From IMG/VR virus record IMGVR_UViG_3300027792_000011: a stretch of DNA of 64,000 nucleotides; one strand, 5' to 3'. Below, in pieces: positions 1,755-15,135 of the stretch. This DNA comes from a virus. The translations under genes and the position numbers were made by a program. Position 1 is the stretch's first letter; the number at the start of each line of letters is the position of its first letter. The notes beneath the pieces were generated by a model. The model was given only the letters and a program-made list of their open reading frames with translations. It had not been told where the DNA came from and ran no database searches.

Positions 1755-3786
1755 ACCAATTCAGAAAGAGTTGATCAGAACTGAAATAAATCTTGATCAG
1801 ATTTTCCAAGAGGGTGGTATCCTCTCAAAATCTCGATCAGGATACAAACTGCGTCCAGGCCAGCTATCCATGGCCAAAGCAGTTGAAGAAGCGATCCGCA
1901 GAGGCCAAACACTCATGGCTGAGGGACCGACTGGAGTGGGCAAATCATTTGCCTACTTGATCCCGGCCATGTTGAGAATGGCTAACAAGACAGTTACTGA
2001 TGCAAAGCGAGTCGTAGTCGCCACGGCAAATATTGCTCTGCAGGATCAACTATGCGGAAAGGATGTTCCATATCTAGTTGCGACGCTGCCTGGATGCCAA
2101 GATCTTAGGTACATGGTCGTGAAGGGGAGGAACAACTATGCCTGCATGATGAAGTTGGGGGAGATCGAAGAGAAAAGAGAAGAGTCAAAGCACACTGAGA
2201 TCGCTTCAGCCTTTGACTCTGAAGGGAATCTGCTCATCGAACCGAAAGCAAAGGAAAAGGATGAGGAGGTCAAGGATGAGGACATCTTCGATCCTGAGAT
2301 TGGAGAGCTGATCGAATGGGCAGCGAAGTCCCCTACCGGTGACAAGAACGAGCTGAGCAAGATCTACAGGACGTGGAACTTGGTCAGTACCAGTAGCGAA
2401 GACTGTCTGGGATCGAAGTGTCCCTACAAGAGCGGATGCTTCGTGAACAGAGCGAGAAGGAAGATGATGGTGGTCCCGATCCTCATATCCAATTATCACT
2501 TCCTCCTCACCAAGCCTACCATTGCGGAGGATAGCATCCTCATCTGCGATGAGGCGCATGATCTCGCTGACATAGCGAGGAATGTGCTGGGCTGGGACAT
2601 CAGCCGATCATCATTCAGTCGAACACTCAGCTTCGTGAAGAAGCTTGACAATGGAGCTGCTGAGCGGATCAAGCAGCTCATCAACAACATGTGGATCGCT
2701 ATCGAGAGCAAGCTCGAAGATGGGAAGCATCCACATCTTCGGATCAGGAGTTGGAGTGACGATGTGGGGTTCTCTCTGGATCCCATAATCGAACTATTGA
2801 GCAAGGTCATCATCGATCACGACAAGGAGGGTGAAGAGGACATCAAAATGATCCGGGGGATCAAGATGTTGAACAACGCCCTGTCCAAGTTCGGTGAGCT
2901 GAAAGCGATCTCACCAGAAGACGGTAGAGTCTACTGGTTCGAGAGATCAGGTAAGTGGATAAACATTCACGCTGCCTACGTGGATGTGTCTGAGGCATTG
3001 AATAAGACACTCTACGAGAACGCTCGTAGTGTGATCATGACCTCGGCCACCATGACATCCGGTGGCAGCTTCGAGTTCATACGTGAAGACGTTGGACTTG
3101 AGGTTGATGGAGAGATAAGGGCACCAAGTCCATTCGACCTGAAGAGACAGGGAATGATCGTGGTGCCGAGAGATATGCCAGACATCCCCAAGTGGAACGA
3201 GCCTGCGAAGGTGAGGGAGTGGAACCGAAAGGCTGCTGAGTATGCAGTCCAGCTCATGAAGATCTGTGGTGGTAGGTGTCTCATGCTCTTCACCAGCTGG
3301 AGGAGCCTGGACGAGGTGCACGGTGTCGTCTCCAAGGAGGCGAGAGCTATGGGCATCCGTGTGCTGCACCAAAAGGATGCACCCAAGATGAAGCTGATCG
3401 AGCAATTCAAAGAGGACGAGACGTCGGTTCTCTTTGGTGTTGCTAGCTTCTGGCAGGGTATCGACGTACCAGGCAAGGCATTGTCTGGTCTGTTCATCGA
3501 CAAGATACCCTTCATGGTGCCGAACACCCCATTCAATGAGGCACTGAGCGAATTGATCGAGGAACGAGGCGGCAATTCGTTCATGGACCTATCCGTCCCT
3601 CGAGCTACCATTGCTTTGTGCCAAGGTGTTGGAAGACTGATACGTACCACGACAGATCGTGGTATCGTCGTCATCACTGACACCCGTCTCATCAACAAGA
3701 GATATGGTGAGACGATCGTACGTAGCCTTCCAGAATTCAAGAAGGTTCAGGACATGAGCAAAGCTGTTGGGTTCCTGGACTTGTAA
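1738..3786 (+). CDS. dinG: ATP-dependent DinG/YoaA-family (XPD-like, Fe-S) DNA helicase
   Basis: Q motif RPGQ, Walker A GPTGVGKS, ATANIALQDQL, KGRNNYAC plus a Cys cluster, DEAH, TSAT, FWQGID, QGVGRLIR. Confidence 0.93.
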   Translation: MKQQNKPIQKELIRTEINLDQIFQEGGILSKSRSGYKLRPGQLSMAKAVEEAIRRGQTLMAEGPTGVGKSFAYLIPAMLRMANKTVTDAKRVVVATANIALQDQLCGKDVPYLVATLPGCQDLRYMVVKGRNNYACMMKLGEIEEKREESKHTEIASAFDSEGNLLIEPKAKEKDEEVKDEDIFDPEIGELIEWAAKSPTGDKNELSKIYRTWNLVSTSSEDCLGSKCPYKSGCFVNRARRKMMVVPILISNYHFLLTKPTIAEDSILICDEAHDLADIARNVLGWDISRSSFSRTLSFVKKLDNGAAERIKQLINNMWIAIESKLEDGKHPHLRIRSWSDDVGFSLDPIIELLSKVIIDHDKEGEEDIKMIRGIKMLNNALSKFGELKAISPEDGRVYWFERSGKWINIHAAYVDVSEALNKTLYENARSVIMTSATMTSGGSFEFIREDVGLEVDGEIRAPSPFDLKRQGMIVVPRDMPDIPKWNEPAKVREWNRKAAEYAVQLMKICGGRCLMLFTSWRSLDEVHGVVSKEARAMGIRVLHQKDAPKMKLIEQFKEDETSVLFGVASFWQGIDVPGKALSGLFIDKIPFMVPNTPFNEALSELIEERGGNSFMDLSVPRATIALCQGVGRLIRTTTDRGIVVITDTRLINKRYGETIVRSLPEFKKVQDMSKAVGFLDL

Positions 3787-5833: not shown

Positions 5834-6220
5834 CTAGGAGGATTTCTTCTGGTTGGCTTCTAGGTGCTGGGCTCTTTTGGCAAGCTTTCGCTGTAGCCCA
5901 GCGAGTTGGGTGCGGGCATCGTCCCTCTCTTTTCGGAGGGCGTCTCGTTCCACCCCGACGGAGAACAACTCTGCCTTGGTATCATTCAGCGCTTTCCTCA
6001 GCCCGTTCAGCTCGTGGATTTCTGGTTCCTTCTCGTTCCACTTCAGCAAGAAGGTACTTGCCATTCGCTCCTTCACCAGGGCATCAGACTTGTAGCATTT
6101 CTGCAGGATTTTCAGATCGTGCTTCAGCACCCTTATGGCGTCTACGGCTGGATGATCTGATGATCCTCGGTCGTCTTCCAGGGATATACGAAGTAGGCCA
6201 AAGAACCATTGAATACTCAT
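5834..6220 (-). CDS. Coiled-coil hypothetical protein
   Basis: GGAGGT RBS, GTGATAAG promoter variant at 6246-6239, heptad-like C-terminus. Confidence 0.7.
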   Translation of the reverse strand: MSIQWFFGLLRISLEDDRGSSDHPAVDAIRVLKHDLKILQKCYKSDALVKERMASTFLLKWNEKEPEIHELNGLRKALNDTKAELFSVGVERDALRKERDDARTQLAGLQRKLAKRAQHLEANQKKSS

Positions 6221-6297
6221 TCTTGCACCTCCAAATTTCTTATCACATCAAATTGATCTGGATTTTCAGGATCACTGCCAATATTGGATCAAAATAG

Positions 6298-6341
6298 CAA
6301 GAAAACATGATCTGCATGTTTTTTTCTTAGATCGTTATAAG
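6298..6341 (+). promoter_or_regulatory. Copy 2 of the repeat: palindromic operator plus GTTATAAG promoter of the Cas7-like operon
   Basis: AAACATGATCTGCATGTTT then TCTTAGATCGTTATAAG, 70 nt before the 6411 ATG. Confidence 0.7.
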
Positions 6342-6410
6342 TAGCACGGAGCCAAGATCAATAAAGCTACCCATGTCGGGAGCATCAGAGAAGGGCTCCA
6401 AGGAGCAGTT

Positions 6411-7262
6411 ATGCCGAAAGTAACGAAGAAACCAGCAGAGCAGCCAGTTGACGACACCACAGTAGCAGTTCCCCTCGAGGAGATTGAGCCTGCACGCAGA
6501 GAGCTACGCAGGGGAGAGAAGATCCACATCGAAGACATCTTCGAGGTGGCACTTCCGGTGTGGATCAAGGCGTGGCCGGGCACCCCTCTGGTGATGAATA
6601 ATTTGAAAGGCAAGAGCCACATTGGAGACATCCGAATGCGGCTCTGTGGATACAACACATCCAAGAAAGGAACCGTGCGGAACCCCTATGACGAGTACAT
6701 TGGCGCAATGTACATCGACGAGGAGGGTAGACACTGCTTCCCGACCCATGGGATCAAGTTGGCTATCTGTTCCGCACTCCAGTTCATACCGGAGATCCCG
6801 ATGACGATGGCGAGAGCCCGTCGTCTAATCAAGGTCAACGTTGGTCAGGAGCTCACTCCGCTGGAGTGGGAGCCTGTTGCAAACAAGCCTCCGCTGGTCT
6901 TCTCGGTTGCTGAGATGAAGCAGGAGGGGGCTGAGCTCAAGCCTGGTAAGGGGAAGAGGGCTACCGGCGTGTACTACACGGCAGCGGTGGCTGATGACAT
7001 GCCGGAGCTGCGAGAGGACGTCGTCCGCCTCATGGGCAAGACGAGAGCTCCAGATCTCAGGTACAGGCCCCAGTACAGGGATTGGAGCGCGAAGATCGTT
7101 GTGTCCTTCCCACCGAAGATCATCACCACGAAATCCGTCTTCAACCTGATCAACATCGCGGGGAAGTACATTGGTCTCTGCGAATGGAGGCCGGAGAAGG
7201 GCGGAGAGTGGGGGATGTTTAGAATTGACCAAGAGCGGACTGGGGCTGTGACCCTAGAGTAG
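6411..7262 (+). CDS. Cas7/RAMP-like RNA-binding protein (candidate Vipr-like effector)
   Basis: RAMP-like layout: N-terminal strand with GTPLVM, Y..EEG..CFP..GIK.AI helix, thumb ending RYRPQYRDW, C-terminal glycine-rich loop AGKYIGLCEWRPEKGGEWGMF. Directly followed by a repeat array. Confidence 0.75.
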   Translation: MPKVTKKPAEQPVDDTTVAVPLEEIEPARRELRRGEKIHIEDIFEVALPVWIKAWPGTPLVMNNLKGKSHIGDIRMRLCGYNTSKKGTVRNPYDEYIGAMYIDEEGRHCFPTHGIKLAICSALQFIPEIPMTMARARRLIKVNVGQELTPLEWEPVANKPPLVFSVAEMKQEGAELKPGKGKRATGVYYTAAVADDMPELREDVVRLMGKTRAPDLRYRPQYRDWSAKIVVSFPPKIITTKSVFNLINIAGKYIGLCEWRPEKGGEWGMFRIDQERTGAVTLE

Positions 7263-7667
7263 CCTCTTCGGAGGCGAAGTGAAGCGGCTGTAGCGAATGG
7301 GATTGGAAAGCCAGGTCCAGGCTGTAGTGGCAGGGATCGACATGGAGTACCGTGGCTGTACTGGAAAGCCAAGGCCATGACTGGAACGGATGGGATTGGT
7401 CGGGCTGAACAGGATAGAACGGCAAGCCATTGGAAGCAATTGGAGGGGCTGTACAGGCCAACAGAGGTTGGGAGGTGTATGGAGCTGAGCGGAGCGATCT
7501 GATCGGCTGTAGCGGAAAGAGATGGAGAGGTGAGCAAGGGCGGTCCCGGATTACTAGGGCAGACAGGGCAGTGATCTGGCTGCAATGGAAAGCCATCGAA
7601 AGAGGTGGTATGTCTGGGATGGCTCGTGATCCTGGGGATGAAGTAATCTCTCCCCAGGATCGTTTTT
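7252..7667 (+). ncRNA. Pentamer-periodic candidate guide-RNA array 1 (leader hairpin, ~8 units, terminator)
   Basis: GGCTG(T/A/C)A anchors at 7286, 7320, 7354, 7403, 7447, 7505, 7539 (degenerate) and 7578. Spacings 34, 34, 49, 44, 58, 34, 39 are mostly 9+5n. The interior consists of 5-mers mostly starting with G/GG. Confidence 0.8.
7628..7667 (+). terminator. Intrinsic terminator closing array 1
   Basis: GATCCTGGGGA / TCCCCAGGATC stem followed by GTTTTT. Confidence 0.8.
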
Positions 7668-7685
7668 GACAAGAAAGGAGCTGCG

Positions 7686-8174
7686 ATGGCCAGAAATAGG
7701 AGGAAGTTCGCTTGGCGAACTCCTCACTTCTATCAAGGGATCGATCCTGACGAGGTAGCCAGGGAGCTCGAGGACATCAAAGAAGAGAACGGCTTGCTCA
7801 CACCATCGCTCGTGGTTGAGCGAGCACGCGATTCTATGTCGGCGCTCCACGCCTGCTTCGAGTGGAATGATACGACGGCTGCGGAGAAGTACCGGCTCCA
7901 GCAGGCAAGGACGTTGATCCTGAACGTCCAAGTGATCGTCAAACACTCTGAGCCACAGATCTTCCTAGTTCAGATCGAGAACAAGGAAGGGAAGAAGACC
8001 TATGAGGATGTTGAGCTGGTGACTGAAGAGGCGGCCTGCCTCGTCATGGCCAATGCCCTCAAAGATCTGAAGGCGTGGATGAAGAGATACAACGAGCTGA
8101 AAGATAGGTTACCTCTGAGCAAAGTCTTCAGCGCTGTCGATGAGGCGTTGAGGCAGACTGGGGCACAGCCCTAG
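7686..8174 (+). CDS. Conserved phage protein; accessory to the Cas7-like/array locus
   Basis: AAAGGAG RBS; LTP..VVE.AR...S.LH..FEW.D..AAEKYRL.QAR.LI motif; lies between the two arrays. Confidence 0.8.
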   Translation: MARNRRKFAWRTPHFYQGIDPDEVARELEDIKEENGLLTPSLVVERARDSMSALHACFEWNDTTAAEKYRLQQARTLILNVQVIVKHSEPQIFLVQIENKEGKKTYEDVELVTEEAACLVMANALKDLKAWMKRYNELKDRLPLSKVFSAVDEALRQTGAQP

Positions 8175-8881
8175 AGTAAGCAGCTTGGCTGCTGAAGTGA
8201 ACCGGCAGCAGATGAAAGGTTAGGAGGGGCTTGGGAGGCAAGATTGGGCTGTAAAGGATGGCATAGATCGGGTTAGGACCGGATCGGTTGGGATTGAACG
8301 GCTGTAGTGGTTTCTAAGGGTTAGGAAGTGAAGGGTCGGGAGGGTTCAGGCTGTAAAGGAGGGGAAAGGTAATGTAGGGGTCGGGCAAGGAAATTACAGA
8401 AAAGGCTGTAGAGGATAGGATGGGAGATGGATTGGACGGTTAGGGCCGTAAGGGCGTAGATCGGAGAGAAGCGGGAAGGTAGGGCTGTAATGAAATGAAG
8501 AATCGATAACGGGGAAGGAACTGACGGGATTAGGCTGAAGAGGAGTTGACTGCAGGGAATGGGCGCTGCTTGGCGAGTCGTATCTTGGCTGAACAGGCGA
8601 GAAATGCTCTGAGAAGGCGATGCCTTGGTACGGCTGTATTGGAGTGCAAGGCAGGCGGACTGATCAGGAAGGGCTGTACCGGATTGCCATGAAGTGTATT
8701 GCTGATCATGCGAATGGCTGTAGCGGAGCGGATTGGCGCTGATAGCAATGTAGGGGCTGGGCTGTAGTGGAACGGATTGGAGTTGACAGTGATGCAGTGG
8801 CGGACCTGGTCTGCATGCCATGGGCACCCACGTGTTTTGATCCTGGGAGGGAGACCGTTCTCTTCCAGGATCATTTTCTTT
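8169..8881 (+). ncRNA. Pentamer-periodic candidate guide-RNA array 2 (leader hairpin, ~13-15 units, terminator)
   Basis: Anchors at 8204, 8247, 8300, 8349, 8404, 8444, 8483, 8533, 8587, 8632, 8672, 8716 and 8760, plus degenerate ones at 8228 and 8799. Same leader and terminator architecture as array 1. Confidence 0.8.
8838..8881 (+). terminator. Intrinsic terminator closing array 2
   Basis: TGATCCTGG / CCAGGATCA stem extended by G-U pairs, followed by TTTTCTTT. Confidence 0.8.
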
Positions 8882-8886
8882 AGATG

Positions 8887-8955
8887 ATCATAAAATAAGG
8901 CCCTCGTTCAGTTCCACTATCCTTGTAAGGACAACACTGGAACCGTTCGAGGGCC
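8887..8955 (-). terminator. Long hairpin, probable terminator of the convergent minus-strand operon
   Basis: GGCCCTCG / CGAGGGCC and GTTCCA / TGGAAC stems, followed on the minus strand by TTATTTT. Confidence 0.5.
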
Positions 8956-9010
8956 TCACGGCGCCGCCATGTAAGAGGGATCGTATCGTAGACGCATTTC
9001 AGAAGCAAGA

Positions 9011-9712
9011 CTACAGTCCGTAGGTAGTACGGATGAGACGGACATCGCTATCTGTGAGGCGGGTGGTGGCGGTGTTCAGCTCGTCTGTCACCATGCGCGG
9101 ATACATGAGTGAGCTGATGAACTGATCATGAGAGAGTCCGATCACATGACCCAGTTCGTGGAGTGTGGTGACGAAAGCAAGTCTATCAGAGGAGGTTTCT
9201 CTGATACGAACTATGGACTGTATAGACTGCATCGTCGTTCCGATCTTAGCATGGTTGACGTAGCCACCAATCTTTCCGCTCTCGGAACCCGTAGCTCCGA
9301 CTACTGACGGCGCACCCCAGATCACTACTACATCTGGTTCCTCATCCGCAATATTGGCGACGCTGAAAAGGAGCTTTCCAACTTGGAGATTGAAGTCGTC
9401 CATAGCCTCTTTGACTATCTTCGATCCCCTATCTTGCTCTTTGAGTGCCGTATGGTTGTTGCTGAATACGACGACGGATAGCGGTAGTTGCTTTTGTGGC
9501 CACACCAGAGGAACTGGGTTCTTGCACTGCCCGCTATCCCCCTCCCCTTGTATGTCTTCGGTGTAGGAAGCGTGCCCATTGTCCCAGCACACTTGGAGCA
9601 GGCCTGCTTCCTGATGTGTAACCACCCCATAGACAACGCAGCAGGCAGCGATGACGGCGAATACCAGGATCACTAGTCCCCACGTTCTGAGAGAGCTCTG
9701 TTTCGTTTCCAT
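9011..9712 (-). CDS. Matrixin (M10-like) zinc metallopeptidase with N-terminal membrane anchor
   Basis: HELGHVIGLSH (HEXXHXXGXXH), Met-turn SLMYP, hydrophobic N-terminus. Confidence 0.88.
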   Translation of the reverse strand: METKQSSLRTWGLVILVFAVIAACCVVYGVVTHQEAGLLQVCWDNGHASYTEDIQGEGDSGQCKNPVPLVWPQKQLPLSVVVFSNNHTALKEQDRGSKIVKEAMDDFNLQVGKLLFSVANIADEEPDVVVIWGAPSVVGATGSESGKIGGYVNHAKIGTTMQSIQSIVRIRETSSDRLAFVTTLHELGHVIGLSHDQFISSLMYPRMVTDELNTATTRLTDSDVRLIRTTYGL

Positions 9713-9721
9713 TCTTGTCTC

Positions 9722-10000
9722 CTACGACGTAAGCCAGGCCGGCCGGCCTGCTCGAAGCAATTTCTCTTGCTGTAGCTTATCTGCAGCTCTTCCCCAAGTA
9801 GACGGACCCATACGGACGGTCGTGGGGACTTTGCCCTCCAATTGCTTTGCGGCGGCCCGAAGCCGTGCTGCTCGCATGCCCCCTCCAACTTCTCCCGCTA
9901 GGCCTAGCGGATTGGAAATGGCGATCTTCTGCATCTCGTCAAAGAATGCTCGAAACTGTGCCGACTTCAACATGCCTCTTGGTACTCTTTTCATGATCAT
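9722..10000 (-). CDS. Small basic protein with FxDEMxKIA motif (putative head-packaged protein)
   Basis: AAGGAG RBS; AFFDEMQKIA motif. Confidence 0.65.
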   Translation of the reverse strand: MIMKRVPRGMLKSAQFRAFFDEMQKIAISNPLGLAGEVGGGMRAARLRAAAKQLEGKVPTTVRMGPSTWGRAADKLQQEKLLRAGRPAWLTS

Positions 10001-10085: not shown

Positions 10086-10631
10086 TTACTCCTCTATGAC
10101 TTCGATTCCCGAGCTGTCCACCGAGAACGTGCCAGTCGTTGCACCATCGATGGTGAGACCGATGCCGTGGTTCCCTGTGGTCGTAAGAATTGCCAAGAGG
10201 TCGTCGGTGGGTACCTGAACCTCACCGTGAATACGAATCGAAAGGTCCAAGGTCCAATCGTCCCATGTCGGCAGATATATCGAGTTGGGATTGCTAATGA
10301 CAGTTGGACCCGAGATCAAATGAGTTCGCCATGCCGGCAGCGCGACCAGCCGTTTGACGAACGTACCTGCGATTGGTCCAAGATTGTCTACCACACCGGG
10401 ATAGAACGGAATGATCACGGCTTTTGGAGGATTGGCCAGTCCTCGTAGTTCTCGGAAAATGGCAGACCGCACATCTCCTAGAGGATGACCAGGAGATAGA
10501 TCTTCTCGCAGGTATTTTCCCGTCTCAGAGAGATCGTCATTTTCCGACGCCGAAGGGAGTAGAGTATGATGGCATTGAACCAGCATAGTTAGACCATCAA
10601 ACTGTAGACCGTTGATTATCTTCGTGAACAT
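10086..10631 (-). CDS. Divergent second Cas7/RAMP-like paralog
   Basis: Colinear motif blocks shared with the 6411 protein (see findings); AGGAGG RBS. Confidence 0.55.
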   Translation of the reverse strand: MFTKIINGLQFDGLTMLVQCHHTLLPSASENDDLSETGKYLREDLSPGHPLGDVRSAIFRELRGLANPPKAVIIPFYPGVVDNLGPIAGTFVKRLVALPAWRTHLISGPTVISNPNSIYLPTWDDWTLDLSIRIHGEVQVPTDDLLAILTTTGNHGIGLTIDGATTGTFSVDSSGIEVIEE

Positions 10632-14805: not shown

Positions 14806-15135
14806 ATGACTGAGGAAGAACGTAATGAGTTCGTCACGCAGGTGTTGGAGACCGTGGTTTCGTGGGGTAGAATCCGTCATCTGAAGATATGTCGTGCCGA
14901 TAACAAAGACGGTATCACCTGGGATCAACTACAGTATCTGAAGAATGAGGCCCTTGGGAAAGATGCATGTGCGATCGAGTTCTACCCACCAGAAGATGAA
15001 TTGATCAACGATGTCAACATCAGACATCTCTGGGAGATTCCATCACATATGCTAAAGAGACCTATGGGGTCGAGAAACCCAACCAAAGGAATGAATGATG
15101 AAGGATCAGAATGTAGTGGAATGGGCGTGGACTGA
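14806..15135 (+). CDS. Conserved phage protein (HL.I.R...WD.LQ..KNE..G...AIE.YP......N.RHLW family)
   Basis: Recognisable conserved motif of unknown function. Confidence 0.7.
   Translation: MTEEERNEFVTQVLETVVSWGRIRHLKICRADNKDGITWDQLQYLKNEALGKDACAIEFYPPEDELINDVNIRHLWEIPSHMLKRPMGSRNPTKGMNDEGSECSGMGVD

Follow-up and report, generated by a model that had tools for sequence, protein, structure and literature searches.

Two arrays of GGCTGTA-anchored units in an uncultured phage are probably vrRNA arrays of a VIPR system

Introduction

In a stretch of 64,000 nucleotides of phage DNA (IMG/VR record IMGVR_UViG_3300027792_000011; hereafter the window), the heptamer GGCTGTA recurs at uneven intervals through a short region between genes, and every interval holds a different sequence. 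What does such a region encode? A preliminary description, made from the sequence alone, had read the region (array 2, 8204-8837) as a series of guide-like RNAs and had proposed how they diversify. Here, we address the question by following the array, the genes beside it, its relatives and its possible targets.

The comparison that matters most is with VIPR (Viral Interference Programmable Repeat), which silences DNA under the guidance of RNA, is related to CRISPR and was first described in 2026 preprints (bioRxiv 10.64898/2026.04.26.720920,.720927, 2026.10.15.759431). According to the preprint text, Vipr is a minimal RAMP that forms a helical filament with one protomer per pentamer of its guide, and this guide, the vrRNA, consists of 9-16 pentamers, each with a constant GGY and a hypervariable NN. 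The NN dinucleotides are described as pairing with DNA while every third target base is skipped, and binding as silencing the transcription of rival phages, satellites or prophages. In SUSP1, G1 and G2 are said to be held by H17, R138, D177, W178 and R179 (positions verified against the SUSP1 ORF). The pocket for the third base is reported to leave no steric room for purines, and perturbed GGY is reported to have abolished silencing.

The same body of text leaves room for variation. Working vrRNAs are said to be often internally degenerate, and we found that the vrRNAs of SUSP1 itself include non-GG pentamers. Named variants comprise staggered arrays with overlapping vrRNAs and repeats of the form NNNGG, YNNNG or NNNNG (10.64898/2026.04.26.720920), as well as the non-canonical triplets GAC, CAC, WGT and TGH in 5-nt periodic arrays (10.64898/2026.10.21.760802); the VIPR preprint text does not name GGA as a motif. 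There are also reports of satellites whose vrRNAs redirect the VIPR of a phage.

Results

Layout of the locus

The locus lies on a 174-kb contig that also carries tail sheath and helicase genes, a phage context in line with the mostly viral or proviral setting of VIPR systems, and its relatives come from IMG/VR contigs and isolated phages. It begins with a gene of 283 aa (6411-7262, + strand), assigned as vipr by homology and fold. The stop codon of this gene is overlapped by the leader of array 1 (7252-7285, +), which reads directly as CCCTAGAGTA, a short hairpin and GAAGTGAA. The same leader module heads array 2 (8164-8203, +), where CCCTAGAGTA, the hairpin and GAAGTGAA overlap the stop codon of the partner gene; the hairpin fold of the array 1 leader is not significant alone.

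Array 1 comprises six vrRNA-like units of 34, 34, 49, 44, 58 and 73 nt (7286-7577, +), which we compared with L121, a member of the sister lineage. It closes with a conserved terminal element (GGCTGCA plus a hairpin) and an intrinsic terminator (7578-7668, +), near-identical in L121, and this end folds with an MFE of -36.2 kcal/mol (z -3.0) into a 13-pair stem followed by a U run. Array 1 sits between vipr and the partner gene (162 aa; 7686-8174, +), which occupies the vap position and was recognised by its co-occurrence beside vipr. Array 2 follows with 12 vrRNA-like units (8204-8759, +), each built of an anchor, NN and 6-9 pentamers with a bias to G-G-(A>N)-N-N, and ends in a conserved terminal unit and an intrinsic terminator (8760-8880, +; stem 8838-8873, then a T run) that are 96% identical in L121, L135 and L136. 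Neither array codes for protein, and both are rich in G on the + strand, with the leader at the head and the intrinsic terminator at the end. Open frames run antisense over the arrays at 8321-8827 (-; 168 aa) and 7219-7596 (-).

Anchors, spacing and pentamer register

Array 2 starts with a degenerate anchor, GGCAGCA at 8204, and further anchors follow at 8247, 8300, 8349, 8404, 8444, 8483, 8533, 8587, 8632, 8672, 8716 and 8760, two of them variants (GGCCGTA at 8444, GGCTGAA at 8587). We reproduced exactly the spacings given in the preliminary description (43, 53, 49, 55, 40, 39, 50, 54, 45, 40, 44 and 44), and direct reading confirmed the unit at 8300 that it had quoted as an example. Its rule that the spacings are 9+5n or off by one base does describe the data, with five of the 12 exact, seven off by one and none off by two, but this wording is weaker than it sounds because 60% of all lengths fall within one base of 9+5n by chance (P ~0.002 for array 2, by arithmetic). 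The window has 19 copies of GGCTGTA itself, and the two arrays account for 14 of these; the expected number is 5.3, and none of 100 shuffles reached 19.

The autocorrelation of GG in array 2 peaks at lags 5, 10, 15, 20, 25 and 30. The period-5 power of G is the maximum of the window here (2.6 vs a median of 0.13), period-3 power is about zero across the array, and the GC skew in 8204-8837 is 0.6-0.7 (maximum 0.69), with G in excess over C on the + strand. Read in register from the anchor (7 nt + 2 nt), the pentamers are biased to G (79%), G (61%) and A (61%) at their first three positions, and base use at positions 4-5 is roughly even. The third base of GG-pentamers is A in 16 cases, G in 10, C in 8 and T in 6. 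About 40-60% of the window pentamers start with GG (~41-43% by DP segmentation), compared with 87-93% in L028, L024 and Mycobacterium phage Brocalys, three relatives presented below. A period-5 signal near 15000 proved to be ordinary coding sequence.

The claim that no unit is duplicated held in an all-vs-all comparison, in which the best pairwise identity of unit bodies was 0.71, vs 0.69 in composition-matched shuffles. Across both arrays the units vary from 34 to 79 nt and contain 5-9 pentamers. No tandem repeats were found in 7200-8900, the sole recurring element being the 7 nt of the anchor, and Rfam returned only sub-threshold noise for 6000-10000.

A Vipr homolog, its partner and a putative second RAMP

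The 283-aa protein matches no Pfam family and has more than 200 homologs. A profile of 43 of these matched one solved structure in the PDB, 36pp_D 'SUSP1 Vipr protein' (E 1e-11), and hhalign against the SUSP1 Vipr ORF gave a probability of 97.3% (E 1.9e-11). The AF2 model (pLDDT 80) is matched in Foldseek by Csm3/Cas7 chains (E ~2e-5), the backbone subunits of type III and VII CRISPR complexes. R219, E258, W259 and R260 of the window protein align with SUSP1 R138, D177, W178 and R179, and all four are strictly or almost strictly conserved in the 43 homologs; at the position of SUSP1 H17 the family consensus is His but the window protein has Asn, and the SUSP1 third-base pocket residues E71/M72 align with His/Gly in the window protein. 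By homology and modelled fold, we assign 6411-7262 as the gene of a Vipr homolog, a predicted stand-alone Cas7/Csm3-like RAMP. The window Vipr is ~80 aa longer than most members of its family (usually ~200 aa), owing to a low-confidence N-terminal extension (~1-45) and an insertion at ~150-190 that directly precedes the conserved R-E-D-V-V-R / Y-R-P block.

The 162-aa partner adjoins vipr in L001, in L121-L124 and in Mycobacterium, Gordonia and cyanophage genomes. It matches phrog_15946, and 9,688 cluster representatives match it at E<=1e-3. Its AF2 model has a pLDDT of 92 and weak winged-helix matches (Z ~5.1-5.5), so that the protein might tentatively be pictured as a winged-helix-like N-domain with a helical hairpin. 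Compared with SUSP1 vap1, it showed no similarity.

Further downstream, an ORF of 181 aa (10086-10631, -) lies in a convergent operon and is without the W-R-P motif. Against the Vipr family, hhalign gave a probability of 25% for the single sequence and of 66% (E 5.5e-5) when three close homologs were included, over 129 columns that take in the Y-x-P...W and G-loop...G-x-F-x-V-D blocks. The matching region of L121 has no called gene of 181 aa. Judged by this profile alignment, the ORF may encode a divergent second RAMP, a putative paralog that may or may not be part of the VIPR system.

Related arrays and gene pairs

Scanning IMG/VR for three anchors spaced 30-58 nt gave 119 matches, most of which are coding tandem repeats; two are clean arrays, L028 and L024. 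L028 has 19 units, which follow the pattern GGCTGTA-NN-(GGANN)n-GGAAA-GGAAC, its 18 spacings are all exactly 9+5n, and 201 of its 202 GG-pentamers carry GGA. The array follows a gene whose C-terminus resembles that of the window Vipr, and no hairpin was found in its constant GGAAA-GGAAC-GGCTGTA. L024 has four units, with 3/3 spacings exactly 9+5n, and lies downstream of a partner-like gene. Since these clean relatives are exact in 21/21 spacings, we regard the 9+5n register as proven.

Other relatives are linked through their genes. L124, with a Vipr 53% identical to that of the window, has ~2 kb of the same GGCTGTA-anchored array, and in distant members of the family (Mycobacterium phage Brocalys, Gordonia phages and L001) the same two genes are accompanied by canonical GGC/NN tracts. 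The Brocalys tract (NC_031262.1 32504-32741; L127 1005-1242) is a clean run of ~37 GGC/NN pentamers in a gap without annotation, upstream of the Vipr homolog gp45 and the partner homolog gp46. The same gene pair is present in ~25 cultured Mycobacterium phages, 5 Gordonia phages and one Cylindrospermopsis cyanophage. At a contig end, L033 has a G-rich segment (1500-1745) with GGCTG anchors and a GGGC/GGCTG rhythm of 4-8 nt, the grammar of which is not obviously the same.

On the reverse strand of L028 (2823-4049), NN modules are repeated: TC-AC-AG-GC in three units, TA-TA-AT in two, and TG-AC-TC-TA in three, or four with a duplicated copy. One unit body is found nearly verbatim twice, at 3453 and 3793. 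This recurrence of modules and of a whole body suggests an origin of the L028 guides in duplication and recombination, with several of them aimed at variants of one site.

Turnover of the arrays between two lineages

We compared the window with its sister lineage, represented by L121, L122, L123, L135 and L136. Vipr is 97% identical between the two at the protein and 91% at the DNA level, and the partner 95% at the DNA level. Relative to L121, dN/dS is 0.03 for vipr (dS 0.47) and 0.01 for the partner (dS 0.27). Both genes are under strong purifying selection, and their function is retained.

The arrays themselves change more freely. For about half of the 18 window units an ortholog can be recognised in the sister lineage, and the others are replaced, absent or extra; one 38-nt unit, for example, is present only in L121 and absent from the window. 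The lineages thus differ by whole-unit replacement, gain and loss, by point changes and by 1-nt indels, and no Cas1/Cas2 families were detected in the neighbouring ORFs scanned, all of which agrees with the earlier proposal that the units diversify without Cas1-type acquisition.

By contrast, the accompanying expectation that substitutions would concentrate at the NN positions was not borne out. In ten aligned stretches of orthologous units (coordinate-defined segments, window vs L121), the five pentamer positions had 8, 11, 8, 6 and 7 substitutions, each out of 65, a uniform distribution. An impression that NN is conserved in retained units, gained from six hand-picked pairs, fell once all pairs were included. 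By the criterion of the preliminary description, the uniform distribution would overturn its reading. We consider this criterion to be unsound, because selection should preserve the NN of a guide that both lineages retain. Uniform substitution does not refute the guide reading: the hypervariability of NN is a property between units and not within orthologues. Since the GG positions change as often as NN, the constraint on the scaffold G's of this clade is only loose.

Three orthologous pairs have one lineage at 9+5n and the other off it (50/49, 58/59 and 49/53), and slips are found in none of the 21 spacings of L028 and L024. The slips, taken at first for tolerated bulges or decaying guides, represent a derived, lineage-specific degeneracy and may be either tolerated or inactivating. 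Being lineage-specific and lacking in the clean relatives, they are best seen as recent indels and not as a feature of design.

Searches for targets

Natural targets were sought under the one-base-skip rule in the host-bin assembly, related loci, IMG/VR, JGI metagenomes and 401 genomes, and all matches were at chance level. When the window guides were run against the 3.8-Mb assembly with skips of 0-3, the perfect skip-3 matches included the arrays themselves. Guide 8587 gave a single 14/14 match at skip 1, in the host-bin FdhD (G000 contig C6 52338-52358; L125 8739-8759, -), with the skip on the wobble position; the E value is ~0.09 per guide with 16 guides searched, one shuffled control also reached 14/14, and the match is probably due to chance. 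A wider search took 93 units of at least 7 pentamers (from the window, L121, L124, L028 and L024) against the assembly and L121, L124, L028, L024 and L001. Its best result, a 16/16 match of an L028 guide in contig C252, is off the wobble phase and not significant after multiple testing. Slip-aware segmentation of the window and L121 guides left the target result unchanged.

For the longest L028 guide, a 20-nt seed had no matches in IMG/VR and a 16-nt seed had seven, none extending; with an 18-nt seed in JGI metagenomes there were three, again none extending. Guide 8533, whose NN is identical in both lineages, had no match with at most one mismatch in 401 host-phylum genomes. In IMG/VR it matched 18/18 on 4 contigs, corresponding to 2 independent loci, and the reversed control gave 1 match. 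The loci are a portal gene (three related contigs) and one virion structural gene, the skip falls on codon position 1, and the phages are unrelated to the window phage. In view of the reversed control, the codon position and the unrelated phages, we treated these loci as chance and not as targets. The negative result of these searches is a weak one, because guides of 6-9 pentamers make chance matches common.

Discussion

Considering all the above results, we conclude with a probability of about 0.88 that a phage-borne VIPR system has its vrRNAs encoded in array 2 (8204-8837) and in its twin (7286-7627). The earlier view of the units as guide-like RNAs with a gapped NN code matches the vrRNAs of the preprints, and a Vipr homolog and its partner are present at the locus. 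Following what the preprints report for SUSP1 and P. fulva VIPR, each unit would be cut out as a short vrRNA, on which Vipr would assemble into a polymer, each protomer taking one pentamer, holding its constant triplet and displaying the two free bases. Together, the displayed NN would then pair with double-stranded DNA, skipping every third target base, and the bound complex would silence transcription of a competing phage, satellite or prophage.

The 9-nt junction (GGCTGTA + NN) equals two pentamers minus one base, so that successive vrRNAs would abut with a 1-nt frame overlap. We infer that this overlap fits the 'staggered array' wording in a legend of 10.64898/2026.04.26.720920. The window copy is eroded: with ~40-60% GG and seven of 12 units off register, some units may be weak or dead guides. 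Several points speak against the VIPR reading. The clade prefers A where the SUSP1 pocket, as reported in the preprint text, excludes purines, and GG drifts like NN, whereas perturbed GGY is reported to have abolished silencing in SUSP1. The units have no structured tail of the SUSP1 kind, the window Vipr has Asn in place of the family-consensus His at SUSP1 H17, the partner shows no similarity to SUSP1 vap1, and the target searches gave matches at chance level only. Moreover, the constant GGY triplet of canonical type II is found neither in the window nor in L028. This excludes the canonical motif but not the VIPR family, since the preprint text allows 'a related consensus'.

The closest described counterpart is the type II VIPR of SUSP1 (Vipr, vap1 and four vrRNAs; PDB 36pp). 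Both are phage-borne and encode homologous stand-alone RAMPs with the G-binding residues kept; in both, a small second gene comes after vipr, and non-coding RNAs with 5-nt steps of two constant G and two free bases occupy intergenic space beside the genes. The differences are nonetheless considerable. SUSP1 uses GGT/GGC triplets and 9-16 repeats, whereas in the window the third base is A or any base and units have 5-9 pentamers. Each SUSP1 vrRNA has a ~30-nt structured tail (pseudoknot) and its own spacer region, with starts ~170 nt apart; the window units are joined by GGCTGTA + NN only (a 7-9-nt junction) and have no structured tail of their own, the structured conserved element standing once per array end. 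Vipr has 283 aa in the window and 195 aa in SUSP1, and, unlike in SUSP1, a window array lies between vipr and a partner that is unrelated in sequence to vap1. Among the variants named in the preprints, staggered arrays are comparable in that 9+5n fits head-to-tail packing with a one-base overlap, and the loose third base fits NNNGG; this comparison of the GGCTGTA clade and of strict GGA with VIPR variants draws on preprint text and legends.

With the backbone of Class 1 CRISPR-Cas, the system would share the RAMP fold, one protomer per fixed guide step and thumb-induced periodic interruption of pairing. Unlike Class 1 systems, the locus is without long direct repeats, spacers, Cas1/Cas2, Cas6 and a large subunit, and each step takes 5 nt, 2 of which pair, where Class 1 has 6 nt and 5 pairing bases, the specificity lying inside the repeat. 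We rejected membership in CRISPR-Cas for want of ~23-50-nt direct repeats with spacers in 7200-8900 and of adaptation genes among the neighbouring ORFs scanned. TIGR-Tas likewise has phage-associated arrays of short non-CRISPR guides, but with a fixed ~36-nt period (18-nt half-units) and a Nop-domain protein; since unit length in the window is variable (34-79 nt) and Pfam scans detected no Nop domain, membership in TIGR-Tas was rejected as well.

Could the arrays instead be a decaying remnant, derived from VIPR, in which most or all units no longer serve as guides, with Vipr and its partner kept for a few intact units or for another role? The low share of GG pentamers (~41-43% against 87-93% in L028, L024 and Brocalys), the seven off-register units, the substitutions that strike GG as often as NN in retained units and the lack of a target found would all fit. 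Yet vipr and its partner evolve at a dN/dS of 0.03 and 0.01, the anchors are almost all intact, and leaders, terminal elements and terminators are conserved. L124 and L121 are equally degenerate, which makes the degeneracy a stable trait of the clade, and the preprint text describes working vrRNAs as often degenerate, in line with the non-GG pentamers of SUSP1. Hence, we regard a remnant as unlikely. Another conceivable role is that of a decoy or sponge, a high-density protein-binding RNA for, say, soaking up a rival's Vipr or a host GGA binder such as CsrA, or for a TRAP-like ring protein that recognises triplets two bases apart. TRAP sites consist of (G/U)AG with a 2-3-nt spacer and the CsrA motif is GGA, and the GGA-rich 5-nt spacing resembles both; satellite vrRNAs that redirect a phage's VIPR have, in addition, been reported in the preprint text. 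A sponge would not, however, need all-different units or an exact junction frame, the arrays lie in cis with their own Vipr gene in a linkage kept in distant relatives, and no CsrA- or TRAP-related gene was seen among the neighbouring ORFs scanned. We find this explanation improbable, clearly more so than decay.

Protein coding on the minus strand, through the 168-aa ORF at 8321-8827, is the least probable of all, and we give it hardly any weight. It is true that open frames of 114-168 aa extend across the array and that genes of 146-151 aa are called in L121 (8014-8457), L135 (1394-1834) and L136 (736-1191). Against this, period-3 power is about zero where period-5 power is maximal, and relatives differ by unit indels of 38, 40, 49 and 53 nt, which, not being multiples of three, break any frame. 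Long antisense frames are expected here because stop codons are scarce opposite a G-rich strand, and the antisense ORFs over the arrays are most likely artefacts of this composition.

Within the VIPR reading, the locus does not call for a new kind of system, because the preprint text allows NNNGG, staggered arrays, internal degeneracy and non-canonical triplets. That the GGCTGTA clade (the window, L121-L124, L028 and L024) forms a distinct VIPR type is possible but, in our opinion, rather doubtful. Three features would define it. From the sequences, the third scaffold base may be a purine or free, which would imply a rebuilt third-base pocket. The guides may be set head-to-tail through the 9-nt junction and have no structured tail; if true, they would need another way of cutting or capping, possibly involving the RAMP-like ORF at 10086-10631. 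Finally, scaffold positions may drift freely while the filament still assembles.

VIPR is a class only months old and known mainly from two Proteobacterial phage systems. The locus and its relatives form a well-bounded clade from uncultured environmental phages that can be searched for by a simple signature, GGCTGTA-NN-(GGNNN)n at lengths of 9+5n. Its clean relative L028 uses GGA, although the solved structure is said in the preprint text to exclude purines there. The comparison of two lineages shows units being swapped, gained and lost and acquiring 1-nt indels while the protein genes stay constrained, and gene callers annotate spurious minus-strand ORFs over such arrays. The published picture of the mechanism is unchanged by the window locus and its relatives. 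Altogether, the locus is a real new example of a known VIPR kind, one whose unit is a degenerate G-G-(A)-N-N and whose packing is very compact.
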